This document shows positions 5,584-44,229 of a DNA stretch of 44,311 nucleotides, piece after piece; positions within the stretch are counted from its first letter, which is position 1; each line of letters starts with the position of its first letter. Where the stretch lies: assembly GCA_965652015.1 (NCBI GenBank), contig CBFGVM010000001.1:1-44311 (forward strand). Reading direction: 5' to 3'. Under the pieces are notes generated by a model that was given only the letters and a program-made list of their open reading frames with translations, searched no databases and was not told where the DNA came from. The translations under genes and the position numbers were made by a program. This stretch comes from an uncultured Alphaproteobacteria bacterium (lineage in GTDB: Bacteria > Pseudomonadota > Alphaproteobacteria > Rhizobiales > Xanthobacteraceae).

Positions 5584-5659
5584 GGGGGGACCTCCATTCC
5601 CGTCGGGGTGGGGAAGCCGGACGGGGCGGGCAAGATCAACGTGAAAACGTGTCGAGCTC

Positions 5660-5682
5660 GTGGCCGGGCCGAGCCCGGCCAC
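5660..5682 (-). terminator. perfect 10-bp GC-rich stem-loop between the small secreted-protein gene and the A2M gene (attenuator, terminator or RNA-stability element candidate)
   Basis: gtggccgggc (5660-5669), cga, gcccggccac (5673-5682) form exact inverted repeats. On the minus-strand transcript a UUUU run follows only after about 12 nt, so this is not a textbook intrinsic terminator. Confidence 0.35.
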
Positions 5683-9153: not shown

Positions 9154-9292
9154 GCCCGTGCTGACGAGGTGATCAGACGATCCGGCCTATTGCACTCCAG
9201 GATCGCTTCGCTGCCTATCGAGGTGTTGCGACCCTGCAGTTTTCGCGCCGGGCAATCTGTTCGACGTCAATGCGATGACAGCTCGGCTCGCC

Positions 9293-30200: not shown

Positions 30201-31988
30201 CGTCTGCTCGTCGGCGGTCAATTCGTGCAACAACGACCAGCCGGCAAGCCGATCGAAGAGTTCGCTCACCTCTTCGATGGCTCGGCGAAAAACCGGTTCC
30301 TGTGCCAGCAATTCGCGTCCCATTGCCCACCACTGCTGGCCCATGCCCGAGCAGACGAACACGGGGTTCAACGCGATAGCCGAAGTGCGGCCAGTCGAAG
30401 TGTTGGCGCGGGTTTCGCCCGCAACGAATGCCTGGAGTTGCCCCACGAGCTCGGCGTGATCGTGAGCAACGAGCGCCAGCCGGAATTCGTGATGAGAACG
30501 CTTCACGCCGGCGGAAAAACAGATATCGCGGAGCGACTCGCGCCGCAGGCCGCGCTTGTCTCCGAGCGCGCTCGCATACGAGCGCGCCAGGTCGGATAGC
30601 GCGGATGCGCTACGTGCCGAGAGCGGCAGCATCCACGCAAGATCGTCGCCGACTTCGGCCTGAATTCGCCCGGCCAAGCCGGCATCGGGAGGTGCCTCGA
30701 GGATCGCGTGTCCGTTCGTGCCGCCAAAACCGAAAGAGTTTACGGCAGCGCGCGGCGGGCGGCCGCGCGTTTCGGGCCAGGGCTCCAGTCCCTGTACGAC
30801 CCTCAGCCGCAGGTCATCGAAATCGATTTGTGGATTCGGAGTCTCGAAGTGCAGACTCTTGGGGATTTCGCGGTGCTGCAGGCACAGCGCTGCTTTGATC
30901 AAGCCGGTTATGCCCGCAGCCGCTTCCAGATGACCGATGTTGCTCTTGATCGAGCCGATCACGCAGCGGTCATTGGGGGGGCGCGCCTTACCATAGATTG
31001 CTCCGAGGGCTGCGGCCTCGATCGGGTCGCCCACGGGCGTTCCGGTCCCGTGCGCCTCGACGTACTGAATGCTATCCGGTGCAATATCAGCCAGCCGCAG
31101 GGCATCGGCTACGTTTGCTTCTTGTGCGACCTGGTTCGGAACCGAGATCCCCGCAGTGCGGCCATCCTGATTGACCGCCGTCGCGCGAATCAAGGCATAG
31201 ATGCGATCGCGATCGGCCAATGCGCGCGAGAGTGGCTTGAGAATGACGACGGCAGCACCTTCGCCGCGCACGTAGCCATTGGCGCGCGAATCGAAGCTCT
31301 TGCACCGCCCGTCGGGCGATAGCATCGATGCCTTAGAGAACCCGATGGTGAGTTCGGGCCGCAGCGTCAGGTTGACGCCACCTACGAATGCCAGCTCGCT
31401 CTCGCCGTTCCAGATGCTGCGGCAGCCTAAATGAGTGGCCACGAGCGAGGAAGAACACGCGGTATCGACGGCGAGACTTGGTCCAACAAGGTTGAAGAAA
31501 TAGGAGATGCGGTTGGCTGCGATACATAGCGACGAGCCGACATTGGTGTACGCGTCGATGGCGGCCCGCGCCTCCGGCATGAGCTGGAGAATGCTGTAGT
31601 CCCAGCTGCAGATCCCGATATACACGCTCGCCCGCTTATTCGCCAAAGCGGCCAAGGTGAGGCCGGCATCTTCGACGGCGTGATATGCGACCTCGAGCAA
31701 AAGTCGCTGTTGCGGGTCTGCCGGCTCGGCCTCCCGCGGGGTGATGCCGAAGAATTGGGCATCGAACCGATCGATCTGATCGAGAAAGCCGCCCCAGCGC
31801 GTATTCATTCGTCCCGGCTTGGCGGGATCCGGGTGATACATCGCCGAGAGGTGCCACCGCTCTGCGGGAGCCTCGACAACGGCGTCAACGCCGCCGACGA
31901 GCAAGTTCCATAAATCGTCGGGGCTACGCACGCCACCGGGCAATCGACAACCAATACCAACGATCGCGATCGGTTCGACGCCAGTCAT
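24276..31988 (-). CDS. stand-alone highly reducing type I polyketide synthase, KS-AT-DH-cMT-(psiKR)-ER-KR-ACP; no loading, TE or R domain
   Basis: Part of ORF 24276..32054. I prefer ATG 31988 (MTGVEPIAIVGIGCRLPGG), preceded by GGGAG. 2570 aa. All domain signature motifs are present; see the domain features below. Confidence 0.95.
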   Translation of the reverse strand: MTGVEPIAIVGIGCRLPGGVRSPDDLWNLLVGGVDAVVEAPAERWHLSAMYHPDPAKPGRMNTRWGGFLDQIDRFDAQFFGITPREAEPADPQQRLLLEVAYHAVEDAGLTLAALANKRASVYIGICSWDYSILQLMPEARAAIDAYTNVGSSLCIAANRISYFFNLVGPSLAVDTACSSSLVATHLGCRSIWNGESELAFVGGVNLTLRPELTIGFSKASMLSPDGRCKSFDSRANGYVRGEGAAVVILKPLSRALADRDRIYALIRATAVNQDGRTAGISVPNQVAQEANVADALRLADIAPDSIQYVEAHGTGTPVGDPIEAAALGAIYGKARPPNDRCVIGSIKSNIGHLEAAAGITGLIKAALCLQHREIPKSLHFETPNPQIDFDDLRLRVVQGLEPWPETRGRPPRAAVNSFGFGGTNGHAILEAPPDAGLAGRIQAEVGDDLAWMLPLSARSASALSDLARSYASALGDKRGLRRESLRDICFSAGVKRSHHEFRLALVAHDHAELVGQLQAFVAGETRANTSTGRTSAIALNPVFVCSGMGQQWWAMGRELLAQEPVFRRAIEEVSELFDRLAGWSLLHELTADEQTSRIQQTHIGQPAIFALQVALAALWRSWGVEPAAVLGHSAGEMAASYISGALSLEDAVRVTFHRSRLQYRTAGQGTMLAVGISREEAAKWIARHPHAISLAAVNGAMSITLSGDAAVLGEIDQALNEMDVFSRPLRVDVPYHSPRMEQLEAELLDCLRDIRPRPATTPFFSTVTGTALSGSELDARYWYRNIRQPVLFHDTLGKVIETGHTIFLELGAHPILRNDIAQCLEEKSAGGATLGSLRRDDRERAALLGSLGRLYTLGAQIDWQRLYPAEATAIKLPVYPFQPDSHWRESETTRRIRVGASVHPLLGSRLEAPKPSWSVALDTANLSYLADHRIGDAVIFPGAGYVEMALAAARETLGPVPCVVEDIEFQKFLILDQGAAPLAQVAFDPSTSEFDICTRADASENTWDVHAHGCVRSSSGSAPPSADIAEIRRRCPEAFDHRECIRRFAECGYHYGPTFQGIARLWRNEREVLAEIHSPSCLREHLSDYRLHPAILDACFQTLLAALPTWTNWQALKGETFVPVKIERVRFHAAPPIRAFAHTRVARRTSAELRVDIQILDESGSCVVEVEGLLVRPIGSGAQRRLSTLYEYQWKLDPRLATRQGRDSHHLPSLDALGPLMQQEGEMLRERFNRARYQREFQSLSRATVAAYIVKALREMGWTPASRQGLSTEKLAAQLGMAPQYLRWLRLMLKELTAGEIDSDEEPSRLWKALWDEFPECQAELMLIRLCGEKLAPVLRGEIDPLNLIFPEGTLTTAEALYQDSPSFRLNNLLVQKAVAEIARRLPKGKALRILEVGGGTGGMTSFVLPVLPDHCTEYVFTDISPRFTAHAQHKFAPFPFVQVRTLDIERDPLEQGFDANSFDLIIASDVLHATTDLRNTLDRLKQLLGSGGTLMVVELTRPWLFMTLIFGLLKGWWLFDDAVRADEPCVSQETWRSLLREAGFTGTVCIADCPEAENAQHSVILARGPRAPASPASMSQASDASKSWLLFADAGTADRPSAAAELARKLEQRGDRVIRVMHGADFRHSGARDFSIRCGNPADMKRLVESLDRQAPQLAGIVHLWSLDTGAANTMTNDAFTSSAQLGCVSVMQLVQALAATDDMAVDHIWLVTHAAQPLADGADLLGLAQSPLWGFARVATNEYHNLHCRLVDLATCSSEEIASLAAELDAGTDAEDEIALHGELRYVRRLLPVSPATVQGMGRPVEQSPKRFQIEVARPGILDSLHACSVAHRPLGPTEVEIEVAATGLNFMDLMLAMGMLPAEAAADGSAGKLLGLECAGRVVAVGEQVSDFAVGDEVIAAKSCTLTSHLTVDTQFVAHKPRHLSLEQGATIPLAFLTAFYSLHTLGRMQRGERVLIHAGTGGVGLAAVQLALQAEAIVFATAGSPEKRQLLAALGVPHVMDSRTLAFADEVLKLTDGEGVDIVLNSLSGDAIDKSLSLLRPYGRFIEIGKTDIFKNRKIGMRVLRRNISVFVADLLGALGARAGLARSMLQEVIARVDCGSLRPLPHRVFPAARAADAFRYMAQAKHIGKLIISMRDNEGLKVENGLRSVAVDAEGSYLITGGLGGLGLAVADHLARRGARRLALVGRSAPSPSAQAALESLRQRGVEVLVAAADITDREQTREVITTLRRRMGPLRGIVHAAMVLDDAPIERLTEERMWKAMAPKVIGAWNLHTLTLDAPLDFFVLFSSLASLIGNAGQANYVAGNAFLDALAYYRRARGLPALTINWGVVGEVGHVAGSPETAQRLERLGLKAMPLSETLDALDELLSSDAVQVGVAEVEWKGLLRSMGTRTPARYSTLVSDGGAEKEGTSAGSGVHDLLDADEAALPSLLQAYVQDLLARAMGTSPARIDTEQSLRNLGLDSLIAVEVRNRINVELGMNVPLAKFMQSDSTISALCSYVAERLLEDNRRGGAESSGNGGMPAAQPSPPLSGADAADLLERIDELSEKEVDRHLSELASEGRA
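24465..24692 (-). other. PKS domain: acyl carrier protein
   Basis: LRNLGLDSLIAVEVRNRI; the phosphopantetheine Ser (aa 2492 of the 2592-aa ORF) is encoded at 24579..24581. A 100-aa tail follows, with no thioesterase or reductase domain. Confidence 0.85.
24960..25505 (-). other. PKS domain: ketoreductase (catalytic subdomain, LDD/B-type)
   Basis: YLITGGLGGLGLAVADHLARRGARRLALVGRS, HAAMVLDDAP (LDD motif) and SSLASLIGNAGQANYVAGN. Boundaries are approximate. Confidence 0.85.
25569..26543 (-). other. PKS domain: enoylreductase
   Basis: MDR fold with the NADPH motif VLIHAGTGGVGLAAVQLA and C-terminal AFRYMAQAKHIGKLII. Boundaries are approximate. Confidence 0.85.
27285..28052 (-). other. PKS domain: C-methyltransferase (SAM-dependent)
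   Basis: SAM motif I LRILEVGGGTGGMT (about 27781..27810), DLIIASDVLHAT and GGTLMVVE. It sits between DH and the KR structural subdomain, as in other cMT-containing PKSs. Boundaries are approximate. Confidence 0.8.
28440..29282 (-). other. PKS domain: dehydratase
   Basis: HPLLG...LADHRIGDAVIFPGAGYVEM (His codon 29190..29192), plus the downstream YGPTFQG and LHPAILDACFQ motifs. Boundaries are approximate. Confidence 0.85.
29400..30365 (-). other. PKS domain: acyltransferase
   Basis: FVCSGMGQQW and GHSAGE (Ser codon 30087..30089). The specificity position reads VDVPYHSPRM, which is neither HAFH nor YASH. Boundaries are approximate. Confidence 0.85.
30699..31982 (-). other. PKS domain: ketosynthase
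   Basis: DTACSSSLVATHLGC (active-site Cys codon 31455..31457), VEAHGTGTPVGDP and GSIKSNIGHLEAAAG. Boundaries are approximate. Confidence 0.9.
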
Positions 31989-32141
31989 GGACACTCCCAG
32001 CCTGTAAGTATTCAGAATGCAAGGCTGTAAAGACGGCGTCAACCGCTGAGCCACTGGCGGTAAAAACAGACACCCGTCCGCTGTGCCACGGGTCTAGCGC
32101 GTTCTCTTGCGCGTCCAAAAGTCGCGCAGGAGTGTAGAACC

Positions 32142-32188
32142 AATTTGCAGGCAGAGGACACTAATTTGCAGAGGACCCTAATTTGCAG
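32142..32188 (+). repeat. three direct copies of AATTTGCAG in the PKS/CHAT divergent intergenic region
   Basis: Copies lie at 32142-32150, 32163-32171 and 32180-32188 (spacing 21 and 17 bp). Copies 2 and 3 extend to CTAATTTGCAG and are each preceded by AGAGGAC. In both, a GG lies exactly 10 nt upstream of the GC of TTGCA. Confidence 0.6.
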
Positions 32189-32306
32189 GCGGTTGACACA
32201 TGAACGCGAGTTAATGTGGGCAACGCCTGTCCGACCTATTCAGCGCGGGCGGTTTCCGAGTCGACGCGGTATGTACTATCTTCGGACGATTTTGTTGGAG
32301 CGGATC

Positions 32307-35300
32307 ATGGGACCGACATGGCGGCGCGCATTGGCCGCTTCTGTTATCATACTCGCTATGGCGGTGGACTCTCTGCTGTTGCCCTCCGCGGCACAGCAGA
32401 GCGACCCGGCGGCGTCGCAGAAGCGTTTTCAGGATCTGTATGAGGCGGGCAATTATTCCGCCGCGCTTGCAGAAGCCCAGAAAGCCGAGGCGGCCGCCAA
32501 GCGTGGCGGCACGAACAACTTTGCTTACGTGTCGGCGCTGAACGACTTGGCCCGCGCTCATCAGGCGCTGGGCCGGTACGGCGAAGCAGCCCAGATGTTC
32601 AAGCAGGTGCTCGCCACGCTGCAGAAGAATCTCCCGCCGGGCGATTCTCGCTTGGCTCAGCCCCTCGCCAACCTCGCCACCGTGTATTTGCTGCAGGCCA
32701 ATCCTCGTGAGGCAGAGAAACTGTACAAGCAGGCGCTCGACATCTCGACCAAGGCGCAGGGCGGACCCAATCAGAGTGTCGCTCTGCTTTTTAGCAATCT
32801 CGCCGACGTCTATAAAGCGCAAGCGCGCTACGAAGAAGCGGAGGCGCAATACAAGCGCGCGCTCGACATGGCGGAGAAGACCGCCGGCCCTAACAGCCTG
32901 TTGGTGGCCCTGATCCTCAACAACCTCACTAAGGTCTACGAGGATCAAAGCCGCTTCAAAGAGGTGGAGGAAGCAGCCAAACGCGCGCTTGCGATTCGCG
33001 AGAAGGCGCTTGGCCCGAACCATCCGGACGTGGCGGCGAGCGTGAACAACCTGGCTCACTTGTATGAGCGGCTTGGCCGCTACACCGAGGCCGACAAGCT
33101 GTTCCAGCGCTCCATCGAGATTTGGGAGAAGGCACTCGGCCCGAAGCATCCGTACCTTGCCACGTCGTTGCTCAATCTTGCGACCGTTTATGCCGACGAG
33201 GAGCGCTTCGAGGAGGCGGAAGCGCTCTACAAGCGCGCCTTGGGCATTCGGGAAGCCGCGTTCGGTCCCAACCACTCCGATGTCGCCACCGTGATCAACA
33301 ACCTCGCGGCGATCTACGAAACTCAGGGTCGCTCTGGCGAATTGGAAAGCTATTCCAAACGGGCGCTTGCCATCGTCACGAAGACGCTTGGCCCGGACAA
33401 TCCCGACACCGCCAAGGTGATCCGCAAGCTCGGCGTGGCCTATGACGCGCAGGGTCGCTACGCCGATGCGGATGCACAGTTCAAGCGCGCGATCGAGATC
33501 GCCACGAAAGCGTTCGGCCCGAATCACCGTTTCATCGCCAACGTGCTGCTGAATCAGGGCCAGTTGTTCGAGCACCAGCGGCGCTACGACGATGCCGAGC
33601 AAGCCTACAAGCGGGCGCTCGCCATCAACGAGAAGGCGCGCGGGCCCAATCATCCGGAGACGGCGAGAACTCTCAATCAGCTCGCGGTACTGAGTATTGC
33701 GCAAGGCAAACCTGCCAATGCCATCGGCTACTCGCGCAAGGCGACGGCGGCGGTACTCGCGCATGCGAATCTCGGCGACGCGGCAGGCCATCAAGGGCGA
33801 GATGGAGAGGGATTGATCGAGCAGCGGTCGGGGTTTTTCGTGAACCACGTCGCAAGTCTGGCTGCCGGCGCGCGGGAGAATGTCGAGCCCGGGGCGACGC
33901 TGGGACGCGAGGCCTTCGAAATTGCGCAATGGGCGAACCAGTCGGCGGCCGCAGCCGCCGTCCAGCAACTGAGCCCGCGCTTCGCCAGCGGCAACGATGC
34001 GCTCGCCGCGCTCGTGCGCCAGGATCAGGATCTGTCGGCCTATCGCCGCGATCGCGAGAAAGCGCTGATCGAAGCATTGGCGAAGCCAGCGGGGCAATCG
34101 GGCCCGGCACAGATCGATACTATTCGCCGGCAAATCGAAGACACCGAGCGCAAGCTGACCGCCACCAAAGCGCGGCTGGAGAAGGAATTCCCCGATTATT
34201 CCACGCTGTCGAACCCAAAGCCGTTGAAAGTAGAGGAGGTGCAGAAGCTGCTCGGGACGCACGAGGCGCTTGTTCTTCCCCTGACGGGTGAGAAGGAGAG
34301 CTATGTCTTCGTCGTCACCCCCGACCGCTTCGACTGGCGCACAATCCCGGCGGGAAGGGATGAGATCGCTGCGAAGGTCACTGCGTTCCGGCGCGGGCTG
34401 GAACTCGATACGATGCAGCAGTTTGACCTCGGCCTCGCGAACGAGCTTTTTACTCTGCTCATCGCGCCGGTCGATGGACTCGTGCGGGACAAGGGGCATC
34501 TGCTGGTGGCGCCGTCGGGCGCGCTGACGGCGCTGCCTTTCCATTTGCTGGTGACGGAAAAGCCGCCGACATCGGCGGGCACGAATCGCACGGCAGCCGA
34601 GGACGCCGCGCGCTACCGCGACGCCGCATGGCTGATCAAGCGCCAAGCCGTCAGCGTTCTGCCCTCGGTGGCCAGCCTGCAGGCGTTGCGGTCGCTGGCG
34701 CAGGCTGGCCAGGGCGGCAAGCCGATGATCGGATTTGGCGATCCGGTCTTCGATCCGCGCGCGACGCCGGGGGGTGAGCAGAAGCGGTCTCGTACCCGGG
34801 GCAAGGCGCGAGCGTACAGCGACTACTGGCGCGGCGCCGGCCTCGATCGCAACATGCTGATGCAAGGGCTGCCGCAGCTTCCGGATACAGCCGATGAGCT
34901 CAGGGCGATTGCGACGTCGCTCGGGGTTTCGTCGACCGATATCGTGCTCGGCCGCGATGCCACCGTGACCGCGGTGAAACGCGCCCCGCTTGCCAACTAC
35001 CGCATCGTCTATTTCGCCACCCACGGGTTGGTGGCCGGCGACGTCAAGGGCCTGGCCGAGCCATCGCTCGCGCTCTCCGTGCCCGCGACGCCGACCGAAG
35101 ACGATGATGGCTTGCTGAAGGCGAGTGAGGTGGCGCAGCTCAAGCTCAATGCCGATTGGGTCGTGCTCTCGGCCTGCAACACCATCGCGGGTGACAAACC
35201 CGGCGCAGAAGCGCTCTCAGGACTCGCGCGTGCGTTTTTCTATGCCGGCGCCCGGGCGTTGCTGGTGTCCCACTGGGCGGTTGCTTCCGACGCGGCCACG

Positions 35301-35471
35301 CGGCTGACGACCTCGGCCTTCGCTACCCTCGCGTCCGATCCGAAGCTCGGGCGCGCCGAAGCGATGCGGCGCGCGATGCTGAGCTTGCTCGATGACAAGT
35401 CGTCGACCGAGAACGCCTATCCCGCAGTTTGGGGTCCATTCGCGGTGGTCGGAGAAGGCAGCCGGCGATGA
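32307..35471 (+). CDS. secreted TPR-repeat protein with C-terminal CHAT (caspase-fold) protease domain
   Basis: I prefer ATG 32307 (GGAG 6 nt upstream; [31 protein letters not shown] signal peptide). There are about ten 42-aa TPR modules (..[33 protein letters not shown]..). The CHAT dyad is intact: [10 protein letters not shown] (His codon 35022..35024) and VVLSACNT (Cys codon 35175..35177). Confidence 0.9.
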
Positions 35472-35508: not shown

Positions 35509-36480
35509 TTAAAAGAGGTCGATGCCCAAACCAACGCGGAAGGTGTGGAAGGACTCACGCAGACCGATGCTCACCTGGCCGGACGGCGTAGAGAGGCAGG
35601 CCGTGCCGCCAGAGCTAGAGCAAGTGTTGGTCAGCCCGAAGGTCTTCGTATAGCTGCCAAAGTCGGTGTACCGGTATTCGGCTCTGGCCTTCACGCCGGT
35701 CCAAATCTCAGCTTCCCAACCCGCGCCAACCGTGCTGCCGACCCGCGTGTCGTTCCAGCTCACCGTGGTCCCTGCCGTCGCGAACGAGGTCGCGGACGAG
35801 CCCGCGCAGGCGGAGACCGAGGGCGTGGAGACGGGCGACGCGCATTGGAAAAGCGTTCCCGTGTATGAGAACGCGCCGCTGATCTCGGCAAACGCGACGC
35901 CGCCCGTCACGTATGCCAGGTTCCAGGGGTTTACGAGCCAGCCGATGCGGCCGCGGATCGACGAGTCCGACTTCTGCTTGACCGAGCCGGAGAACTGGTC
36001 GGTTCGCACATAGGTGGTGGCACTGGGGAACTGGGCGGAGCTCGGAACAGCAATCACGGCCGCGGATGACTGAGGCAAAGAGGTCCCAGCGTTTTTCCAG
36101 GACCAGTCGCCCTCCAGGCCGACGACCCAGCCGCCTATCTGCACGCGGTAGCCGACGAACGGACCGATGGTGTAGGAGGTCTTGTTTCCGCTGAACGAGA
36201 ACGGCGTCTCGAAGCAGTTGCTGTTGAAGGTGCTGCCGGATGGGCAGATAAAGGAACCCGGATCGACGAAGCTGTTGTTCACCGAGCTGGCGCCGTTCGA
36301 GCCGCCGACCTGCCCGCCATTCCAATTGGCGGTCCGAGAAGGTGCCTGCTGTTGCGGCGCAGGCCGTTCGACCACCCGTTCTCTTTTCGGCCTGGCCGGA
36401 ATTTCGGCCGCGTTGGCCGGCTGCAGGATGGCCACTGCGGACAGCGACAGCAAGCTCACGCCGGCGACTAGTAGTCTCAT
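35509..36480 (-). CDS. outer-membrane beta-barrel protein (Omp25/porin-family-like)
   Basis: I prefer ATG 36480 (MRLLVAGVSLLSLSAVAILQPANA/AE). It shows alternating-hydrophobic beta-strand patterning and Gly/Ser/Thr-rich loops. The C-terminus FRVGLGIDLF ends in Phe, the OMP sorting signature. Confidence 0.75.
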   Translation of the reverse strand: MRLLVAGVSLLSLSAVAILQPANAAEIPARPKRERVVERPAPQQQAPSRTANWNGGQVGGSNGASSVNNSFVDPGSFICPSGSTFNSNCFETPFSFSGNKTSYTIGPFVGYRVQIGGWVVGLEGDWSWKNAGTSLPQSSAAVIAVPSSAQFPSATTYVRTDQFSGSVKQKSDSSIRGRIGWLVNPWNLAYVTGGVAFAEISGAFSYTGTLFQCASPVSTPSVSACAGSSATSFATAGTTVSWNDTRVGSTVGAGWEAEIWTGVKARAEYRYTDFGSYTKTFGLTNTCSSSGGTACLSTPSGQVSIGLRESFHTFRVGLGIDLF

Positions 36481-36609
36481 GACACGCCCCCGTTGGTTTT
36501 CAATATCCCCGCTCAACACCTTAGGCGAATACTCCCGGGAATCAATTTCTGAAATCATCGGTAGATTAAGTTTCGGTCATGTGTGGCCCGAGCGTCACAC
36601 TATCTCGTG

Positions 36610-38757
36610 CTAACTCGACCATTCCGGGTCACTAATCCGATCATTGGATGGGTGGTAGCGGGCGAACACAACTTTAGCCGCCTGTTGCAGCATCCCGCCG
36701 CCGATGGCGCTGAGGTGGGTAAGGCCCGCCTCCAGCATACCCTGGTCGAGCGCCTTGCGTGCGGCCGCGAACTCGGCGAGCCCAGGGTCATCCGCTGGCA
36801 CCGAGGCATAGATTGAGCGCGCCCCTGCAAAGCCCTTGAGATCGACATCGTCGATTCGAAGCAGAACGTTGTTTCCCAGCACGCCTGTCTTCGCCGATTG
36901 CATGATCATTTCCGCAGTGGAAGCGGCAATCAGTAATGGAAGGCCATAGAGATCCGGCACTTTTTCGAGGCGAAACGTCTCGTTGACCGCCGGGCCGATA
37001 ATCGTGAAGTTGCTGCGGTGCGCCGCGCCGAGGTCGCCGACATAGACCTTGCCTGAGCACACGACCGCGCGCGCAGCCAGACGGCTCTTGTCCGACAGTT
37101 GGGCGGAATTCACGGTCTTGATGATTTCCTGCGCGGCCGCCAGCGCCTTGATGGCGTGGTCCGGCTCATCGGAAAGCCCGTTCCAGAACGCCAGGACTGC
37201 ATCCCCGAGGAACTTATCGCTGCAGCCCTCGTGCTGGTCGATGACCGACTGCATCAACGTGAAGTACCGGTTGGCCACTCCAACAATTTCCGACGCGGTA
37301 AGATCGGGCCTGTTCGAGAAGGAAGTAAATCCCACGATATCAGCCAACAGAATCGAGACTTCTCGCTCTTGACCCTCGCCCTGATCGGCGAATCCGCTGC
37401 GCGCCAACGTCACTAGCCGCGCCGGCGGCAGGTAACGCCCTGCGGTGCGGAAGAGCCTCCTGAACAAGGCGCGGTGGCGGACCGATCGAACGCCGAGAAT
37501 GGTTCCGTATGCGATAATGGTGACTAGGATTGGGTATCCCATCGGCAGCCACAGATCCGCAAATGCAAACGCGGCAGCACTGAACGAGCAGCCGACAAAC
37601 GTTGGCCCCACAAGTCCGAAAGCGATCGCCCGCGACAGCTGCACCAGGACGAGAGAGCCCGGTGAAACGTCGCGTTCGCCCAGGGCAAGGGCGCTCTCAT
37701 CGCGAAAGGCCAGCATCGCGAAAAGAAAGGCCAAGCAGGCACCCGCGACGAGTCGCAGCCATGGCGGCGCCAGAGTTACCCGCTGTTCGCTGGCCGCGGA
37801 TTGGATCGCCGCGATCTGCAGCAGCACTCCTGGGACTTGCTCGACCCGCGAGCGTTCGAACAAGCCGCGTTGCGGCGCACAGCGCTCGCTCGACGGAGCG
37901 TGCTCGGCCCGACTCAGAAACCGCGCCGGCCCGCGGTGCTCGTCTTCGCCGACCACCGCGGTCCCCACGACCACGATCCGCCCTGCGACCGCGTTTCGAA
38001 CCTGATCGGCGCCATCCTTCGATGCGAGGCAAGCCAGCAACGTCTCCAGGCTGTACGTGGGTGTATCGGTTAGCGGGCCAGCCGGGGCGATCAAAATGCG
38101 TTCGCCGGCGGCCGCTTGGCGCACGCCCCATCCGGCGCCAAGGGCGGCAAAGCCCAAGGCAATGCGCCCATCCGGAAGACGAACGAGAGGAGCGGTGCTT
38201 CGCACCCTTCCATCCGACTCGACCTGGAGGTCGAGCACGCCGACCCGCGATGGTCCCACCGCCTCGAGGAAAGCCGCTGCAGGTGGAACGCTGGGGAACC
38301 GCGCCAGAACAATCCTATCGCGTCCGCGTTGCAGAACGTCGATTAGGCTGCGATCGTAGCCGGGCAAAGTGAACGAGCCGACTTTGAAATCCGCACCGGC
38401 ATACGCAAACACCAGGTCGAAGGCGACCCGGCGCGCTCCGGCATCGAGCAGCCCGTCGATCAGACGAGCCCAAATCGGTTGGAAGAGCGCTCGTGGGAGC
38501 GCGGCGAGCTCGGAGCTTGCGAGCGACGCATCGTCGACGGCGACGAGGACGATCGGTGCGGCGGGAAGATGCCGCCGCCAAGGCTCGGATGTCCTCAGTG
38601 TGAGGTCGTAAAGCAGCCCGTTCGGGCCGCCGAGCGCTGGGAAACCACCCTTATAGTCGCTGACATAACCGGCGAGTCCGCCTGCCACCACGCACAGAGC
38701 CGTGATCAGGCTTACGAGGGGTCTCCAGTTTCGAATGCTCCAGTCGCCGAGATCCAC
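36610..38757 (-). CDS. CHASE2 sensor domain + TM + class III adenylate/guanylate cyclase
   Basis: 715 aa with a GTG start. It has an N-terminal TM, then a CHASE2-like periplasmic region (PIVLVAVDDASL...ALFQPIWARLIDGLLDAGARRVAFDLVF). TM helices follow, then the cyclase core VSILLADIVGFTSFS...DKFLGDAVLAFW...FTIIGPAVNETFRLE with metal Asp residues and the Asn/Arg pair present. Confidence 0.9.
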   Translation of the reverse strand: MDLGDWSIRNWRPLVSLITALCVVAGGLAGYVSDYKGGFPALGGPNGLLYDLTLRTSEPWRRHLPAAPIVLVAVDDASLASSELAALPRALFQPIWARLIDGLLDAGARRVAFDLVFAYAGADFKVGSFTLPGYDRSLIDVLQRGRDRIVLARFPSVPPAAAFLEAVGPSRVGVLDLQVESDGRVRSTAPLVRLPDGRIALGFAALGAGWGVRQAAAGERILIAPAGPLTDTPTYSLETLLACLASKDGADQVRNAVAGRIVVVGTAVVGEDEHRGPARFLSRAEHAPSSERCAPQRGLFERSRVEQVPGVLLQIAAIQSAASEQRVTLAPPWLRLVAGACLAFLFAMLAFRDESALALGERDVSPGSLVLVQLSRAIAFGLVGPTFVGCSFSAAAFAFADLWLPMGYPILVTIIAYGTILGVRSVRHRALFRRLFRTAGRYLPPARLVTLARSGFADQGEGQEREVSILLADIVGFTSFSNRPDLTASEIVGVANRYFTLMQSVIDQHEGCSDKFLGDAVLAFWNGLSDEPDHAIKALAAAQEIIKTVNSAQLSDKSRLAARAVVCSGKVYVGDLGAAHRSNFTIIGPAVNETFRLEKVPDLYGLPLLIAASTAEMIMQSAKTGVLGNNVLLRIDDVDLKGFAGARSIYASVPADDPGLAEFAAARKALDQGMLEAGLTHLSAIGGGMLQQAAKVVFARYHPSNDRISDPEWSS

Positions 38758-38796
38758 GAGGTCGACCTAGTTCGCGACGCCGTCGGCCGCCGGTGG

Positions 38797-40290
38797 TCAG
38801 CGTATTCCGTAGCGCTCGAATTCGTCGGCGATGTTGGACTGGATGAGTTTCGCAGCTGCAATGTCACCGTTGCCTGCGACGCTGTTCCCGATCCGCAACT
38901 TGGCTATTCCGCGTCCATAGAGCGCCGACGCATGTTTCGGGTTGATGCGCAGCGCTGCGTCGTAGTCCGCAATCGCCCTGCTCGCCTGCCCCATCTTCAG
39001 GTTAACGAAGCCGCGACTGTCGAGAGCGTCGACGTAACTCGGGCGCAGCGCCAACGCGCTGTCGCAATCTTTCAGTGCCGACTGCACCTCCCCGATCATG
39101 GCGTTCGCCCAGCACCGGTTGTTCAGTGCTTCGGCGTCCTTGGGATTGAGCCGAATAACGGCGTCGAAATCCTTGACGGCACTGGCGAAGTCCTCGTGTT
39201 GGGCATAGAGCTGACCGCGCTTATAGTAGGTGGCGACATCATTGGGGTTGCGCCGAATCTTGTCGTCGAGCTCTTTGATCGCGGGGTCGTCGATGCGCGC
39301 AACCGGGGAGGGCGCAGGTGTCAGCTTTGCGATCTGCTCACGCGCCCGGTCGGCATGACGCCCGGTAGGATACCTCAAAAGGAAATCCTCCCATGCCTTT
39401 TTGGTCCCGGTGCGTTCCGCGGATTGGTAGGCGGCCCGCGCGTCGGCCTCCAGATCGGGCGGCGGCAGCGGCACCGCTGTCTTCTTCTCCGGCTCGACGG
39501 CGGTCGAAGTGGATGCCGATGACGGCCGTCCAGACGATGTGAACGAGATTACCTCAACGAGCGAGGAGGAGAACCACGGGACCTGCTCGCCCTGGGATGC
39601 CCGCGAAACGCCGATCAGCGTGCGGTTGAAGGCCTCCTCGATCCTGCCCGTACCTCGAATCTCTTTGATCAATTCGCTCACGAAGACCTGCCGATCGCCG
39701 TCCCTGACCACGGCGCCGGGGGCGGCCGCGTACATCACGACCGTGCCCTTCGGCACGCTGACCGGGGCCAGCCCACCGGCGACGGAGCGGAAGCGGCGCT
39801 CGAATGGGTTTCTCCGCGAAGCGTCGAGAATGGCAATCTTGACGCGGGCGCCCCTGGTGTTCATCTCGGCGAGGACCGAATCGAGACTGTATCCGTCGCG
39901 GCGCACGTCAGGTTCAGACCAGATCTGCGCATTGACCGGGATCATGTAGGTCTGCCGATCGGACTGAATGCCATAGCCGCTGAAAAAAAAGAGCGCCGTC
40001 GACCCGGGCTTGATCTTGCCGTAGAAGCGGTCGAGCGTCGCGCGCATTGCTTCTTTGGTGAGATTCTCGCTGGTGTCGACCTCGAATCCGTGTCGCCGCA
40101 ATTCCTCAGCCAAGGCGCGGGCGTTGTTGACCGGGTCTTTCAGCGCCGCTTCCGCGTCTGGATAGGCAGCATTGCCGATGACCACCGCGACCCGTGCTTC
40201 GTTTTGCTGTGCACAAACCGGGTGAATGCTGGTCCCGGCAAGGAACGTGAAGAGCACCGGAACAATAAGGCGAGAGGTCGAGTGCGCCAT
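38797..40290 (-). CDS. secreted peptidase-C14 (caspase)-like domain with mutated catalytic dyad, fused to C-terminal TPR repeats (predicted pseudo-protease)
   Basis: I prefer ATG 40290 (MAHSTSRLIVPVLFTFLAGTSIHPVCAQQ). The caspase-fold core is RVAVVIGNAAYPD...ALFFFSGYGIQSD...KIAILDASRRNPF. Tyr (codon 39973..39975) sits where the catalytic His belongs, and Ser (39817..39819) where the catalytic Cys belongs. The C-terminus has about 4 TPRs (YYKRGQLYAQHEDFASAVKDFDAVIRLNP...). Confidence 0.85.
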   Translation of the reverse strand: MAHSTSRLIVPVLFTFLAGTSIHPVCAQQNEARVAVVIGNAAYPDAEAALKDPVNNARALAEELRRHGFEVDTSENLTKEAMRATLDRFYGKIKPGSTALFFFSGYGIQSDRQTYMIPVNAQIWSEPDVRRDGYSLDSVLAEMNTRGARVKIAILDASRRNPFERRFRSVAGGLAPVSVPKGTVVMYAAAPGAVVRDGDRQVFVSELIKEIRGTGRIEEAFNRTLIGVSRASQGEQVPWFSSSLVEVISFTSSGRPSSASTSTAVEPEKKTAVPLPPPDLEADARAAYQSAERTGTKKAWEDFLLRYPTGRHADRAREQIAKLTPAPSPVARIDDPAIKELDDKIRRNPNDVATYYKRGQLYAQHEDFASAVKDFDAVIRLNPKDAEALNNRCWANAMIGEVQSALKDCDSALALRPSYVDALDSRGFVNLKMGQASRAIADYDAALRINPKHASALYGRGIAKLRIGNSVAGNGDIAAAKLIQSNIADEFERYGIR

Positions 40291-40871
40291 GGCGTGTGTC
40301 CTGGTCTTACGCGGAGCCGGTTCGCAAGCCGCGATCAACCGCCTGTGCCAGGGGCGTTCGATCCGGCGCGCTTGCTACAATCGCACGGGGCGAGTTCGCG
40401 CGCATCGCGGTTCTCGCCAGCAGCGTGCAAGCCGCTGATCTCCATCAAGAAGTGCGGCAAAGCTTAATGGTTCAGCCGCGTTCGGGCAATTGTCCCAGGT
40501 CACACTGTCGCGGATTTGTATGACAAGACCGCGTGCGACGCTCGCGCGGCTTGCCACTCCCGGGCGATCGATTGCCCATCGTCTGGTGGCGGGCTGGCGC
40601 AGCCATCTCGCGACGCGCTCGGGTGGGCCAACGCGTCGCGGCTCGGCGCACCTTTGCCTGTATTACGATGTCGCGCCTCAACCTCCGCCGACTCCCGCGA
40701 GTGGCGGGCAGAGAACGGAGAGGGAACGCGACGCGAATCGCGCTTTTTGTGACCTAGATCACGGTAACTTGGGTATATGGGGTATAGGGTTCTCACATCC
40801 GGTTCGGCTCGTCCGGTACCTCGACTTAAACGGGAAGCGGGCCGAGTGCGCCTAAGAAGAGGGAGACAAGA

Positions 40872-41507
40872 ATGTCCGCGCATCACAAGACGCATAAGCT
40901 TAATCTAGTCTGCATGATCCTGGCCGTTGGCCTTGCCTTGCCCTCGGGACTCGGTGTGGCCCTCGCCGCAGAGGAACGCTCGGCGGATGACATCATCAAG
41001 GCGTTAAAGCCCCAGAGAATCACCCGCGGCCTCACGACGTCCCCGGCCGATGCAGCCCGCAACGCGCAGGAGACGAAGTTCGTAAACAGCTTGCGCAACC
41101 GGCCGACACGTTCCCTGACGTTCACCGAGCGGGAGCAGATCACATCGATCGCTAAGAAGCGGCCGAGCATCGATCTCGAAGTGAACTTCGATTACAATTC
41201 GGACAACATCGGCTCAAAGGCCGCTCCGCAGGTCACCGCTCTCGGCGACGCCCTGGCGAGTCCCGACTTGAAGGGCAGCACTTTCATTCTTGCCGGCCAC
41301 ACCGACGCCAAAGGCAGCGAAACCTACAATCAGGGACTGTCCGAGCGCCGTGCCGAGGCGGTCAAGCGGTTCCTCGCGGAAAAATATGGAATCGAGGCCA
41401 GCAACCTGGTGACCGTCGGCTACGGCAAGACCCAGCTGAAGAATCCAACTGGACCGTTCGCGAGCGAAAATCGCCGGGTCCAGGTCATCAATGCCGCCGA
41501 CAAGTAG
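40872..41507 (+). CDS. OmpA-family peptidoglycan-binding protein (secreted)
   Basis: 211 aa with RBS GGGAG and signal peptide ...LGVALA/AEE. It carries an OmpA C-terminal domain (NFDYNSDNI...FILAGHTDAKGSETYNQGLSERRAEAVKRFL...VGYGKTQL). Confidence 0.85.
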   Translation: MSAHHKTHKLNLVCMILAVGLALPSGLGVALAAEERSADDIIKALKPQRITRGLTTSPADAARNAQETKFVNSLRNRPTRSLTFTEREQITSIAKKRPSIDLEVNFDYNSDNIGSKAAPQVTALGDALASPDLKGSTFILAGHTDAKGSETYNQGLSERRAEAVKRFLAEKYGIEASNLVTVGYGKTQLKNPTGPFASENRRVQVINAADK

Positions 41508-41603
41508 GCGGCTCGCCAGGCGGCGGCTCAGCGAATGAACCGTACGCCTGGCAACCCCGTCTAATTAACAAGGAATGGCGGGTTTCACCTCGGGAGATCA
41601 ACT

Positions 41604-42308
41604 ATGGAACCCCGGTCCACCGAATATCGCAGGTGCAGAGGAACGGCCTCGAGCGTTGTGGGATCGGTGGCGGCCATGCTGCTGCTCGCGGCCGTCGACG
41701 GGACGGCTGCACCTGCGTTGGCACAGCAAGCCACAGCGGATGTCGCCTATGTGGAGGACGTGAACGGTCGCGTGGTCGCGTTCGCTCAGGGTAAGCCAAT
41801 TCTGCTCAACCCTCTTGATACCATCAGCGATCGCACGCGGCTGGATCTGCAGGCAAACAGCGAATTGCGCATCTGTCACTATCCGACGCGCCAGTTTCTC
41901 ACGTTGAAGGGACCCTTGACCGCCTCGATTTCCCGGGACGGGGTTACGGCTGACAATAACAAGACTGCCGTTGCCGCAACGGGGCCGTGCGTCGCGCCCG
42001 TGGTGTCGACCGTCCAAGGCGGCCTGATTTCGCGCGGCGCCGGCACCGCCGTGAAGAGCGTTTCTCTGCAACCGAATATCAGGGTCGTCAATCGCGGCGC
42101 ACAGCCGATCCGCCAGGCTGTATTGTGGGACGGCGATGCCAGAAACATTCTGATGCGCTTGGAGCGAGACGCGGCGCGGCCGACGCTCCAGGACGGCCAG
42201 TTCTATGTTCTGGTCGTCGAGCGCGGCGATGGCAGCGAGTTCAAGATGACGCTCCAGGCAAGGGCGGATACAACAGGCGACGATCCGGTCATCGTCGTGG
42301 TTCCGTAA
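41604..42308 (+). CDS. secreted protein of unknown function; the N-terminal domain is paralogous to 5707..6126, with about 95 extra C-terminal residues
   Basis: 234 aa with GGGAG 7 nt before the ATG and signal-like segment VAAMLLLAAVDGTAAPALAQQ. See the alignment noted for 5707..6126. Confidence 0.7.
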   Translation: MEPRSTEYRRCRGTASSVVGSVAAMLLLAAVDGTAAPALAQQATADVAYVEDVNGRVVAFAQGKPILLNPLDTISDRTRLDLQANSELRICHYPTRQFLTLKGPLTASISRDGVTADNNKTAVAATGPCVAPVVSTVQGGLISRGAGTAVKSVSLQPNIRVVNRGAQPIRQAVLWDGDARNILMRLERDAARPTLQDGQFYVLVVERGDGSEFKMTLQARADTTGDDPVIVVVP

Positions 42309-42417
42309 ACGGGTTGGCGCCTCGCACACTCGGTCACTTGGGCGGGTCCGCCCGTAGATTGTTGGACCTTACCTCCAATGGCATAGGTAGCTATTGGGGG
42401 GAGAGAAAGGGAATGTC

Positions 42418-44229
42418 ATGTGGCGACATTGGCTCGGCATCCTCGCGGCCGTCTTGCTGATATCTGAAAGCGCCTTTGCGCAGAGCCGACTTGCACTTGT
42501 CATCGGAAATTCGAACTACCAGAGCGCGGTACGGCTAGCGAATCCGCTGAACGATGCGAAAGCTGTTGCCGAGGCTCTCGGCGCCGCTGGATTCGAAGTG
42601 ACGACGGCATCGGACCTCAGCCAGGCGGAGATGCGCCGCACTGTTCGCGATTTTTCGGCCCGCATCGCGGAAAAAGGCCCCGATGCGACCGCCCTCGTCT
42701 TCTACGCCGGCCATGGCGTGCAGGTCGACGGTGAGAACTTTCTGATCCCGGTCGATGCACGCATTCAACGCGAGTCGGACGTCGCGATCGAAGCGCTGCG
42801 CCTCGCCGACATTGTGAAGGCGCTCGAGACGGTTCAGAGCCGAACGCGAATTGTCATGCTTGATGCGTGCCGCAACAATCCTTTCTCGAGCGTCGGCGCA
42901 AGCGGACGGGGTCTGGCCATTGTTGACGCCCCCACAGGGTCGATTGTCGGCTATTCGACCGCCCCGGGCACCGAGGCCGAGGACGGCACGGGGCAAAATA
43001 GTCCGTATACTTCGGCGCTCCTGAAGGTCATCCGGGAACCGGGTCTTCCAATCGAGCAGGCGTTAAAGCGCGTGCGGCTGCTGGTACATGAAGCGACCGA
43101 CGGCCGGCAGACACCATGGGAAAGCTCATCCCTCATCAGCGACTTCGCATTTTACCCCGACGGCACGCCGACGAGCGCTAGCCCACCGTTGCCTCAAGTC
43201 GCACAACGGGATGCGCGTCCGGGAGACGTACAGACGCGGGATGCACAGCCGCGCGATACGCAGTCGCGGGAGGGGCAGTCGCGGGAGAGGCAGTCGCGGG
43301 ATGGCGAGTCGCGGACAACCCCTCGAAGTGTCGCATGGCGGGAACAGATCCGAAGCCGCCCGCAACCGCGCCAAGCCTATGACGTCGTCGTCATGGAGGA
43401 TTCCGTCGATGCCTACGAAGAATTCCTTCTTCTCTATCCGTACGATCCGCTTGCCGAACGAATCCGTTACCTGCTGAGCCTACGCTCACAAGCGCTCGCC
43501 TGGCGCTACGCGGTTCTGGCCAATACTCCGGATTCGTATAGTTACTACCTGAACAGCTATCCCGGCGGCTATTACGCCGCTCAGGCGATGCGGCTGCGGG
43601 AACAACCGCGGATACGGCCGGTGGACTCGGTGATGGCGCCTCGCGTCATCGAGCCGCCGCGGGCGCTCCGAGTAAGCTTGCCTTCGTCGCAGGGGGGCGA
43701 CTCGAAAGGGGGCAACTCACCAAGCGGCGGGAAACAAGGCATGCCTCCTGGAGGGTCGGCAACCACGGGCTTGCCGCCGAAGACCGATCAAAAGACAGGG
43801 AACAAGACCGACCAGAAGATGGGAGAGCGGACTGATCAGAAGAAGACCGATCAGAAGTTGGGAGACAAAACCGATCATAAGTTGGGAGACAAAACCGATC
43901 ATAAGTTGGGAGACAAAACTGATCAGAAGACCGGAGAGAAGATAGATCGGAAGACTCGAGAGAAGATTGATCGCAAGATCGCAGAGAAGACTGACCACAA
44001 GATAGATCGACGGTCTGCTCGTGCGACCACTACCGGCGTAAAAACGGCCGTCGAAAAGTTCTCGAAGTCCGAGAGCCGCCGCAACTCCTTTGCAAGTGCG
44101 CCGCAGGCGGCAAAAGCCAGCGCCTTCAAGAACTCCGGGTCATCGTTCTCCCGCTCCATGTCGCAGTCCTCCTTCCGCTCCTCGTCTGGTGGGGGCGGCG
44201 GTGGCGGCCACGGGGGTGGAGTCGGCTGA
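42418..44229 (+). CDS. secreted peptidase-C14 (caspase) family protein with intact dyad and a repeat-rich low-complexity C-terminal tail
   Basis: I prefer ATG 42418 (RBS GAGAGAAAGGGA; MWRHWLGILAAVLLISESAFAQ). Core: RLALVIGNSNYQS...ALVFYAGHGVQVDGENFLIPVDA (His codon 42712..42714) and RIVMLDACRNNPF (Cys codon 42868..42870). Pentapeptide and octapeptide repeat arrays and a Gly run follow. Confidence 0.85.
   Translation: MWRHWLGILAAVLLISESAFAQSRLALVIGNSNYQSAVRLANPLNDAKAVAEALGAAGFEVTTASDLSQAEMRRTVRDFSARIAEKGPDATALVFYAGHGVQVDGENFLIPVDARIQRESDVAIEALRLADIVKALETVQSRTRIVMLDACRNNPFSSVGASGRGLAIVDAPTGSIVGYSTAPGTEAEDGTGQNSPYTSALLKVIREPGLPIEQALKRVRLLVHEATDGRQTPWESSSLISDFAFYPDGTPTSASPPLPQVAQRDARPGDVQTRDAQPRDTQSREGQSRERQSRDGESRTTPRSVAWREQIRSRPQPRQAYDVVVMEDSVDAYEEFLLLYPYDPLAERIRYLLSLRSQALAWRYAVLANTPDSYSYYLNSYPGGYYAAQAMRLREQPRIRPVDSVMAPRVIEPPRALRVSLPSSQGGDSKGGNSPSGGKQGMPPGGSATTGLPPKTDQKTGNKTDQKMGERTDQKKTDQKLGDKTDHKLGDKTDHKLGDKTDQKTGEKIDRKTREKIDRKIAEKTDHKIDRRSARATTTGVKTAVEKFSKSESRRNSFASAPQAAKASAFKNSGSSFSRSMSQSSFRSSSGGGGGGGHGGGVG
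43231..43314 (+). repeat. 15-bp in-frame tandem repeat (about 5.5 copies) encoding Q-[STP]-R-[DE]-x pentapeptides
   Basis: cagacgcgggatgca / cagccgcgcgatacg / cagtcgcgggagggg / cagtcgcgggagagg / cagtcgcgggatggc / gagtcgcgg; protein QTRDAQPRDTQSREGQSRERQSRDGESR. Confidence 0.7.
43780..44010 (+). repeat. 24-bp in-frame tandem repeat (about 9.5 copies) encoding K-T-D-[QH]-K-x-G-[DEN] octapeptides
   Basis: Units start at 43780, 43804, (short unit 43828), 43843, 43867, 43891, 43915, 43939, 43963 and 43987. The units at 43867-43890 and 43891-43914 are identical (aaaaccgatcataagttgggagac). Protein: KTDQKTGNKTDQKMGERTDQKKTDQKLGDKTDHKLGDKTDHKLGDKTDQKTGEKIDRKTREKIDRKIAEKTDHKIDR. Confidence 0.8.

Follow-up and report, generated by a model that had tools for sequence, protein, structure and literature searches.

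A caspase-fold protein without its catalytic dyad, encoded in a recurrent cluster of envelope and CHASE2 cyclase genes in Alphaproteobacteria

Why would a bacterium keep a caspase homologue that has lost both of its catalytic residues? The question is raised by a 44,311-nucleotide stretch of DNA from an uncultured alphaproteobacterium of the Xanthobacteraceae (assembly GCA_965652015.1, contig CBFGVM010000001.1, positions 1 to 44,311; "the window" below means this whole stretch). A gene at 38797..40290 on the reverse strand of the window encodes 497 amino acids and a stop codon, and its open reading frame, sequence, Pfam matches and homologues identify it as a pseudo-orthocaspase joined to tetratricopeptide repeats (TPRs). 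We call its product the dead caspase, and we call a neighbouring caspase-fold protein with an intact dyad the live caspase. The catalytic dyad of the dead caspase is lost, the gene is under purifying selection, its neighbourhood is syntenic in other genomes, and dead and live caspase domains occur fused in single chains. We propose that, within a conserved envelope module, the dead caspase is probably a periplasmic subunit with a binding or adaptor function and no catalytic one. That it would act by binding and not by cutting is suggested by what selection keeps: residues of the former cleft, a helical motif in the linker, and the TPR module.

The protein is built as a signal peptide, a Peptidase_C14 domain, a linker and TPR repeats, in that order. 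Its reading frame runs from an ATG; an in-frame TTG upstream at 40338 is also possible, but the consensus N-terminus of the homologues begins at the ATG and not at this TTG. Residues 1-27 (40210..40290, reverse strand; MAHSTSRLIVPVLFTFLAGTSIHPVCA, followed by QQ) are a predicted Sec signal peptide, recognized by a hydrophobic 12-mer at residue 8 (mean Kyte-Doolittle value 2.42) and by a V-C-A motif before the conserved QQNEARV, and cleavage would be expected after residue 27. The Peptidase_C14 (caspase-fold) domain occupies residues 33-244 (39559..40194, reverse strand) and is supported by Pfam, by an AlphaFold2 (AF2) model, by Foldseek and by the pattern of selection described below. It matches PF00656 over profile positions 2-228 of 233 (E 3e-31) with 109.3 bits, against a cut-off of 21.4. 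The variable Pro/Ser/Ala-rich linker (residues 251-334; 39289..39540, reverse strand), delimited by selection and by the model, contains the conserved helical motif TKKAWEDFLLRYPTGRHADRAREQIAKL and has helices at residues 280-323 in the AF2 model. The C-terminal TPR module (residues 335-497; 38800..39288, reverse strand), defined by Pfam, model confidence and invariant columns, matches TPR_1, TPR_2, TPR_9, TPR_11, TPR_16 and TPR_17, all above their cut-offs, within residues 353-470.

The AF2 model, built on 46 homologues, has a predicted local distance difference test score (pLDDT) of 80-95 over the p20-like core (residues 31-160) and about 95 over the paired helices of the TPR module (residues 336-493), and is poor over residues 160-280. 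When it was compared with the PDB by Foldseek, MALT1 caspase domains came out on top (E about 1e-10, probability 1.00), and the C-terminus matched MamA and consensus TPR proteins. The caspase domain, of about 220 residues, has the extent of that of MALT1 and is followed by the disordered linker and the TPRs; no separate p10-like domain, which would mark a metacaspase as against an orthocaspase, was detected, the p10 hidden Markov model of the authors who defined the class not having been applied. Two cysteines of the TPR module, Cys393 (39112..39114) and Cys409 (39064..39066, both on the reverse strand), are invariant (NNRCWA ... LKDCD), and the C14 domain has none. This pair would fit a structural disulfide in an oxidizing periplasm.

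Active C14 peptidases carry a His-Cys dyad after strands beta3 and beta4, and the dead caspase lacks it. The original prediction, made from the letters of the window, held that the His of the SGHG motif is replaced by Tyr (39973..39975) and the Cys of the DAC motif by Ser (39817..39819), that the rest of the fold signature is kept, and that the neighbouring caspase retains both residues. All four statements are borne out. The Tyr of FFFSGYGIQ, Tyr106, is encoded by TAT (39975..39973, read on the reverse strand), and the Ser of ILDASRRNPF, Ser158, by TCG (39819..39817, likewise). Human and mouse MALT1 paracaspase were the nearest solved structures by sequence in a phmmer search of the PDB sequences, and in that alignment Tyr106 lies opposite the His of MALT1 'yyagHgye' and Ser158 opposite the Cys of 'lldmCr'. 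Along the MALT1 chain this His and this Cys lie 49 positions apart, which agrees with their being His415 and Cys464. The His and Cys of the live caspase align with those of MALT1 in the same two columns. The fold itself is attested by the Pfam match over nearly the whole profile and by the Foldseek matches, and residue equivalence with a characterized C14 peptidase, which the original prediction had left to be confirmed, is supported alike by the MALT1 alignment and by Foldseek. MALT1 and the dead caspase share the motifs IGN..Y, xxGxG and LDxxR at an overall identity of about 21%; they differ in that MALT1 is active, with His415 and Cys464 where the dead caspase has Tyr and Ser.

The substitutions are not peculiar to the window. 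A search of 5.8 billion proteins (E<=1e-10) gave 5595 matches to the dead caspase, and the family counts given here refer to the best 120 clusters of these matches (43-95% identity), or to 121 members when the window protein is included. The 120 clusters all combine C14 with TPR and are intact and full length. Their dyad columns read Y/S in 73, F/S in 31, F/A in 15 and V/A in one, and H/C in 0/120. Counted over the 121 members, the position of the catalytic His is Y in 74, F in 46 and V in 1, and that of the catalytic Cys is S in 105 and A in 16. On these alignments the substitution of the dyad is a property of the family rather than chance. Tyr and Phe exchange between close relatives; for example, the orthologue in locus L001 is 77% identical and yet F/S.

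A wider search with the dead domain alone gave the same picture. An exhaustive HMMER search of 1.84 billion representatives at 50% identity produced 4700 matches at E<=1e-30, and the C14 segments of the best 150 of these have the dyads Y/S (about 40), F/S (41), Y/A (32), H/S (7), F/A (5), I/A (5) and others. Because the dead clade fills most of the 150 best representatives, these sequences indicate that the loss of the dyad is ancient and stable, and that the dead clade is large.

Could the active site use a different pair of residues? An alternative dyad was sought in the mature C14 domain, and Cys is absent from that domain in 120/121 family members. The one His there is H67, a position that varies across the family (H 46, S 24, N 18, R 12, Q 7). 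A different His/Cys pair, the finding that would have undone the original prediction, is thus ruled out, since the mature domain has no Cys and only this non-conserved His. With Tyr106 and Ser158 in the His and Cys columns of MALT1 and no Cys in the mature domain, the dead caspase is not classed as an active peptidase. Since Tyr or Phe, both aromatic, stands in place of the His and the small Ser or Ala in place of the Cys, the dead caspase, judged from its sequence, cannot work as a cysteine protease. From the loss of the dyad and the Ser-to-Ala variants we infer that it is proteolytically inactive.

It might still be a hydrolase if Ser158 had taken over as nucleophile, in a Cys-to-Ser switch with some other residue as base. 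Ser does occupy the nucleophile position in 105/121 members, and the cleft around it is invariant. However, the His that would serve as general base is replaced by Tyr, Phe or Val, the C14 domain has no conserved His, and 16/121 close homologues have Ala instead of Ser. In the wider clade many members have Y/A, F/A or I/A dyads. Because Ala variants occur in the same gene neighbourhood and module, Ser158 does not appear to rescue catalysis, and we consider a hydrolase very unlikely.

Loss of both catalytic residues could also be a sign of decay, with the gene a paralogue of the live caspase on its way to becoming a pseudogene. The pattern of substitution refutes this. The ratio of nonsynonymous to synonymous substitution rates (dN/dS), estimated by the Nei-Gojobori method against 16 orthologues derived from genomes, is 0.09-0.25 in the dead C14 domain, 0.13-0.22 in the TPR module and 0.24-0.9 in the linker, the least constrained part. 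Where a genome has both genes, identity to the window is 80-87% for the dead C14 domain and 62-66% for the C14 domain of the live neighbour; of the two, the dead domain is the better conserved. Open reading frames are full length across the best 120 clusters, the orthologues carry Y/S, F/S, F/A or V/A, and the loss is ancient and stable. The orthologues thus show selection and not the random disruption that would have refuted the original prediction, and decay merits hardly any weight; the dead caspase gene is, on these sequences, not a pseudogene. In one locus, L016, the counterparts of the dead caspase gene and of the cyclase gene (8001..9618 and 11392..13198) each match in two separate frames or segments, which could mean frameshifts, assembly errors or true disruption.

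What has been kept around the dead site is consistent with binding. The segments S-G-[YF]-G-I-Q and I-L-D-A-[SA]-R-R-N-P are near-invariant. We take Asp365, Asp462 and Glu500 to be the acidic residues of the S1 pocket of MALT1. Two of these have kept acidic equivalents in the family of the dead caspase: D156, at the position of Asp462, is invariant, and position 197, which corresponds to Glu500, is D or E.

The neighbourhood of the gene suggests where such binding might take place. On the same strand, 39 nt downstream of the dead caspase gene, begins a gene for a CHASE2 receptor class III nucleotide cyclase (36610..38757, reverse strand; Pfam CHASE2 at residues 49-344, Guanylate_cyc at 464-600). 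Hydrophobic segments at about residues 14-32 and 333-351 flank the CHASE2 domain, as befits a CHASE2 receptor cyclase. By eye we recognize what we take to be the metal-binding Asp residues (ILLADIVGFT, KFLGDA), the Lys/Thr specificity positions and the Asn/Arg pair (VNETFRLE), and the product is a putative adenylate cyclase. The 39-nt gap between the dead caspase and cyclase genes has no terminator-like hairpin; over 36400..42500, scans for promoters and terminators found as many candidate sites as are expected from shuffled sequence. Co-transcription of the two genes is plausible because the gap is short and on one strand, no terminator-like site lies in it, and the adjacency recurs in other genomes. 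Downstream of the cyclase lies a gene for an outer-membrane beta-barrel protein (OMP_b-brl by Pfam; 35509..36558, reverse strand), and convergent with this apparent cyclase operon is one for a TPR-CHAT protein, a caspase-fold protease (32145..35471, forward strand; Pfam CHAT E 8e-54, TPR_12/TPR_10), which keeps its His in VYFATHGLV and its Cys in VVLSACNT.

On the other side, an intergenic region (40291..40871, from the gene coordinates) separates the dead caspase and cyclase genes from a divergent set of three on the forward strand; no convincing sigma-70-like site was found in it. The first of the three encodes an OmpA-like peptidoglycan-binding periplasmic protein (40872..41507; Pfam OmpA E 5e-18) with YiaD/YfiB/Pal-like NCBIfam matches under the cut-off. 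The second (41604..42308) encodes a secreted all-beta protein of 234 amino acids that has no assigned family: it has no Pfam match even at E<=10 and no NCBIfam match. Its 419 homologues, every one annotated 'hypothetical', form a family of about 235 amino acids in which Cys91 and Cys129 are invariant. An AF2 model gives it two beta-sandwich domains (pLDDT 75), and no fold match in the PDB was significant (best E 3e-3, unrelated beta-sandwiches). The third encodes the live caspase (42418..44229), an orthocaspase-like C14 protein (Pfam E 8e-44) with a signal peptide and a repeat-rich C-terminus. Its dyad, supported by the MALT1 alignment, is His99 (42712..42714, in YAGHGVQ) and Cys151 (42868..42870, in MLDACRNNPF), the latter its sole mature Cys.

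All of these partner proteins begin with hydrophobic, A-x-A-type signal-like sequences. Together with the hydrophobic segments around CHASE2, these N-termini suggest that the whole gene set is located in the envelope, and that the dead caspase would be periplasmic.

Does the arrangement recur? The comparison covered 26 loci in genomes of GTDB species, most of them metagenome-assembled genomes (MAGs) of Xanthobacteraceae and Methylocella, together with metagenome contigs. The OmpA-like gene adjoins the dead caspase in nearly all loci and is its most constant neighbour. The CHASE2 cyclase and the 234-amino-acid protein are both present in L001, L003, L005, L008, L016 and L019, and the short contigs L002 and L007 have the cyclase. 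One co-directional run of dead C14-TPR, OmpA, all-beta and CHASE2 cyclase genes is seen in L008 and L019; L016 has the same order with fragmented matches, and in some genomes the co-directional run extends from the dead C14-TPR gene to the outer-membrane barrel gene after the cyclase. The all-beta gene stands immediately before the cyclase in L003, L008, L019 and L029. The outer-membrane beta-barrel gene is syntenic in L001, L003, L007, L008, L016, L021 and L027-L029, and the TPR-CHAT gene in L001, L003, L008, L013, L016, L021 and L027-L029. Of about 15 loci with long flanks, 9 have an H/C caspase within 8 kb of the dead gene, and orthologues of the live C14 gene with H/C are found in L001, L003, L004, L005, L016 and L017. 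Two metagenome contigs repeat the arrangement according to their precomputed Pfam labels, one of them with an F/A dead caspase. The gene set recurs with Y/S, F/S or F/A dyads alike, and the F/A case indicates that the module is independent of which substitutions are present. The dead C14-TPR, OmpA-like, all-beta, CHASE2 cyclase, outer-membrane beta-barrel and TPR-CHAT genes, often with a live C14 gene, thus make up a conserved envelope cluster. More generally, the all-beta gene usually stands directly before the cyclase or after the OmpA-like gene, and L003 has a second copy of it.

The dead caspase belongs to a class that has already been described. Klemencic, Asplund-Samuelsson, Dolinar and Funk defined bacterial pseudo-orthocaspases in 2019 and found that they make up 8.6% of bacterial caspase homologues (PMC6426788). 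Alphaproteobacteria hold 582 of them, 561 in Rhizobiales, where the commonest dyads are Y/S, Y/A and F/S and the F/S forms are 'consistently' found with TPR repeats (PMC6426788). The window protein, with a p20-type domain and a Y/S dyad, relatives that are Y/S, F/S, F/A, V/A or Y/A, and its closest genomes among alphaproteobacterial MAGs, falls within this class, and the dead dyad alone adds one member to it. Like the published Rhizobiales clades it has a C14 domain with one of the dyads Y/S, F/S or Y/A, a C-terminal TPR and a retained fold. There are differences: Klemencic et al. tie TPR to F/S and find Y/S mostly without identifiable C-terminal domains, whereas Y/S is the commonest dyad in the TPR-fused group here. 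In the authors' view pseudo-orthocaspases are inactive and act as scaffolds or competitors, with cFLIP-L and TbMC4 as the examples cited (PMC6426788). The original proposal that the dead caspase is a pseudo-protease, which may act as regulator, decoy or scaffold, is in line with this thinking, including the Y/S dyads and TPR fusions reported for Rhizobiales. We found no later characterization of alphaproteobacterial pseudo-orthocaspases in the literature from 2022 on.

For the pseudo-orthocaspases of phototrophic Alphaproteobacteria and cyanobacteria, the published hypothesis favours a link to photosynthesis (PMC6426788), and this could in principle extend to the dead caspase. However, the closest genomes are MAGs of soil Xanthobacteraceae and of Methylocella, which suggests a host without phototrophy, the conserved neighbours are envelope and signalling genes and not photosynthesis genes, and no photosynthesis genes were among the window's open reading frames scanned. 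The 2019 paper contains no operon analysis (the word 'operon' occurs 0 times), and the synteny and the dead/live fusions found here point elsewhere. We consider a role related to photosynthesis highly improbable.

The one pseudo-orthocaspase that we found to have been studied experimentally is SyOC of Synechocystis sp. PCC 6803 (PMC7889975); it resembles the window protein in being a pseudo-orthocaspase and differs in being cyanobacterial, in belonging to another clade and in having, as far as is known, no TPR fusion and no CHASE2/OmpA neighbourhood. Cyanobacterial YS pseudo-orthocaspases have a TAT-like N-terminal extension (PMC6426788).

A different role, as partner or decoy of the live caspase, has to be weighed more seriously. 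Like cFLIP, the dead caspase might form a heterodimer with a live orthocaspase or compete for its substrates and so switch its activity, and the link to the cyclase would then be an incidental matter of gene order. There are precedents: cFLIP-L of humans heterodimerizes with caspase-8, and TbMC4 of Trypanosoma brucei is processed by TbMC3 (PMC6426788). Both resemble the window protein in having a caspase fold without the dyad, and TbMC4 is also Y/S. They are cytosolic and eukaryotic, with DED or other domains, whereas the window protein has TPRs and a predicted signal for secretion and is encoded in a receptor-cyclase cluster; the resemblance is one of logic and not of orthology.

Evidence for such a role also comes from single proteins that contain both types of domain. 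Fusion of two domains is a classic sign of joint function. Among the top representatives of the HMMER search are tandem dead and live C14 proteins with the dyads F/S then H/C (P0124, P0138), H/C then Y/A (P0143), and H/C then Y/S (P0230); in all four, Pfam confirms two C14 stretches and the N-termini are signal-like. A fifth, P0154, reads H/S then H/C in its aligned segments. P0138 and P0143 carry the helical motif W..FL..HP.G.Y.DLAR.QLAKL, as in the linker of the window protein. The genomic context of P0124, on a short contig, held nothing informative. Such single-chain tandems are independent support for the view that in bacteria dead and live caspases work together, which would parallel cFLIP and caspase-8 and run contrary to the published view of independent action.

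Side observations on these proteins may be added here. A W/Y..FL..YP helical motif follows the C14 domain in both proteins of the window, as KKAWEDFLLRYPTGRHADRAREQIAKL in the dead caspase (39322..39402, reverse strand) and as AYEEFLLLYPYDPLAERIRYLL in the live one (about 43432..43500, forward strand), and its occurrence in dead, live and tandem caspases may reflect a shared docking element. The C-termini of P0138 and P0143 end, after a Pro-rich tail, in a near-identical LLWWWPQW(R/N), which may be a sorting or anchoring signal and was matched to no known motif. The live caspase gene has two in-frame tandem repeats, one at 43230..43314 (forward strand; 15-nt period, about 5.7 copies, peptide beginning QTRDAQPRDTQSREGQSR) and one at 43779..44003 (forward strand; 24-nt period, peptide KTDQKLGD), and its product ends in a Gly run. 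This charged repeat region is probably disordered, and its length is likely to vary.

The tandems, with their shared linker motif, the predicted secretion of both C14 proteins of the window and the H/C caspases that lie within 8 kb of the dead gene in 9 out of some 15 long loci all favour a cFLIP-like role. On the other hand, the live C14 gene is missing in L008, L012, L013, L019, L020, L025 and L029, where the OmpA-like gene, and often the cyclase, is still there, and the dead gene is in an operon-like arrangement with the cyclase and not with the live caspase. The pairing of live and dead caspases put forward in the original prediction does recur, in these 9 loci and in the tandem proteins, but the dead caspase has steadier neighbours in the OmpA-like protein and the CHASE2 cyclase. 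We regard an exclusive role as partner or decoy of the live enzyme as possible but doubtful.

We favour instead the proposal that the dead caspase is a binding or adaptor subunit of the envelope module. We postulate that the dead domain could bind a ligand, either a peptide or a protein, or else a live partner with the caspase fold, as cFLIP binds caspase-8, while the TPR arm might dock the complex to envelope partners. The OmpA-like protein could serve as peptidoglycan anchor, with the all-beta protein, the outer-membrane beta-barrel and the CHASE2 cyclase as other parts of the module. Once docked, the complex might influence the cyclic-nucleotide output of the cyclase; either the CHASE2 cyclase or the live proteases, or both, would be modulated as a result.

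Several points weigh against this proposal. To our knowledge, the alphaproteobacterial pseudo-orthocaspase clade has been the subject of no experimental or interaction work, and its function is not known. Signal peptides were judged solely on hydrophobicity and A-x-A-like motifs. Residues 160-250 have low confidence in the model, so the modelled geometry of the cleft is tentative. The S1 residue equivalent to Asp365 is Asn in the dead caspase and Asn or Ser in the TPR subfamily (N 93, S 20, D 4), so binding of Arg or Lys peptides may be altered or lost; this position is Asp in most of the wider dead clade. A live C14 gene is not within 8 kb in about 6 of 15 loci, and the dead protein would thus have no strict need of a live C14 partner. 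Clustering of genes by itself does not establish physical or regulatory coupling to the cyclase. Finally, Klemencic et al. hold that bacterial pseudo-orthocaspases probably do not regulate true orthocaspases (PMC6426788).

Other CHASE2 receptors offer precedents for such a module. A Burkholderia operon encodes a response regulator, a LysM-FecR protein and a CHASE2 histidine kinase, that is, a CHASE2 receptor with a periplasmic peptidoglycan-binding partner (PMC5192318). In Sinorhizobium, the CHASE2 cyclases CyaD1, CyaD2 and CyaK have the FecR protein SMc02177 as a co-encoded partner (PMC5498481), and a basic, protease-sensitive peptidic signal reaches such cyclases via the outer-membrane barrel NsrA (PMC7529298). 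Orthocaspases themselves cut behind basic residues (PMC6426788). The Pfam text on CHASE2, quoted in PMC5192318, gives the factors it recognizes as not known. As in these systems, the CHASE2 receptor gene of the window stands with genes for secreted accessory proteins, among them a peptidoglycan-binding one. Sinorhizobium and the window also share an outer-membrane beta-barrel, the window's being likened to NsrA by type alone. In contrast, the Burkholderia and Sinorhizobium papers report no caspase-fold partner, and the window's 234-amino-acid protein has no FecR match. We had considered it as a FecR-like (PF04773) partner of CHASE2 and rejected this, as it has neither a Pfam or NCBIfam match nor a significant fold match in the PDB; its place beside CHASE2, where FecR partners stand elsewhere, offers an analogy only.

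In a more specific and rather unlikely version of the proposal, the dead caspase-TPR protein would be a co-receptor that holds the ligand in an undescribed periplasmic proteolytic signalling pathway gating the CHASE2 cyclase. The live C14 and TPR-CHAT proteins would process either a protein of the envelope or a basic protein or peptide coming in. The dead caspase would then capture the product, or the protease, in its intact non-cutting cleft and could gate the CHASE2 domain by way of its TPR arm, together with the OmpA-like anchor and the all-beta protein. If this is so, caspase-type proteolysis in the envelope would be coupled to cAMP signalling, and an orphan CHASE2 sensor would gain a ligand pathway.

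A literature search on CHASE2 with CHAT domains found nothing, and one on CHASE2 with caspases yielded only proteins in which the two are fused and the caspase domain is predicted to be cytoplasmic; these are not this module. In the papers searched we did not find the conserved envelope cluster, the single-chain dead and live tandems, the invariant residues around the dead active site or, likewise, the higher conservation of the dead than of the live domain. The cluster offers a concrete, genetically tractable hypothesis on the function of pseudo-orthocaspases and on what CHASE2 senses.

Several other genes of the window may be mentioned. At 379..5682 (reverse strand), about 30 kb from the cluster of three caspase-fold proteins, lies a gene for a bacterial alpha-2-macroglobulin of 1767 amino acids (bMG3/5/6/10, MG2, bait-region and A2M domains), a periplasmic protease trap. 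The gene at 7171..9153 (forward strand) encodes a cyclic-nucleotide-binding domain fused to a Na/sulfate (CitMHS-type) symporter; its product could be a cyclic-nucleotide effector in the same window as the CHASE2 cyclase, though far from it. Directly upstream of the TPR-CHAT gene is one for a type I polyketide synthase of 2592 amino acids (24276..32054, reverse strand; KS-AT-DH-MT-ER-KR-ACP), followed by a reading frame of 1092 amino acids with a class III aminotransferase domain (21550..24828, reverse strand). Near the module in L029 there are genes for AMP-binding/PP-binding, phosphopantetheinyl-transferase and methyltransferase proteins.

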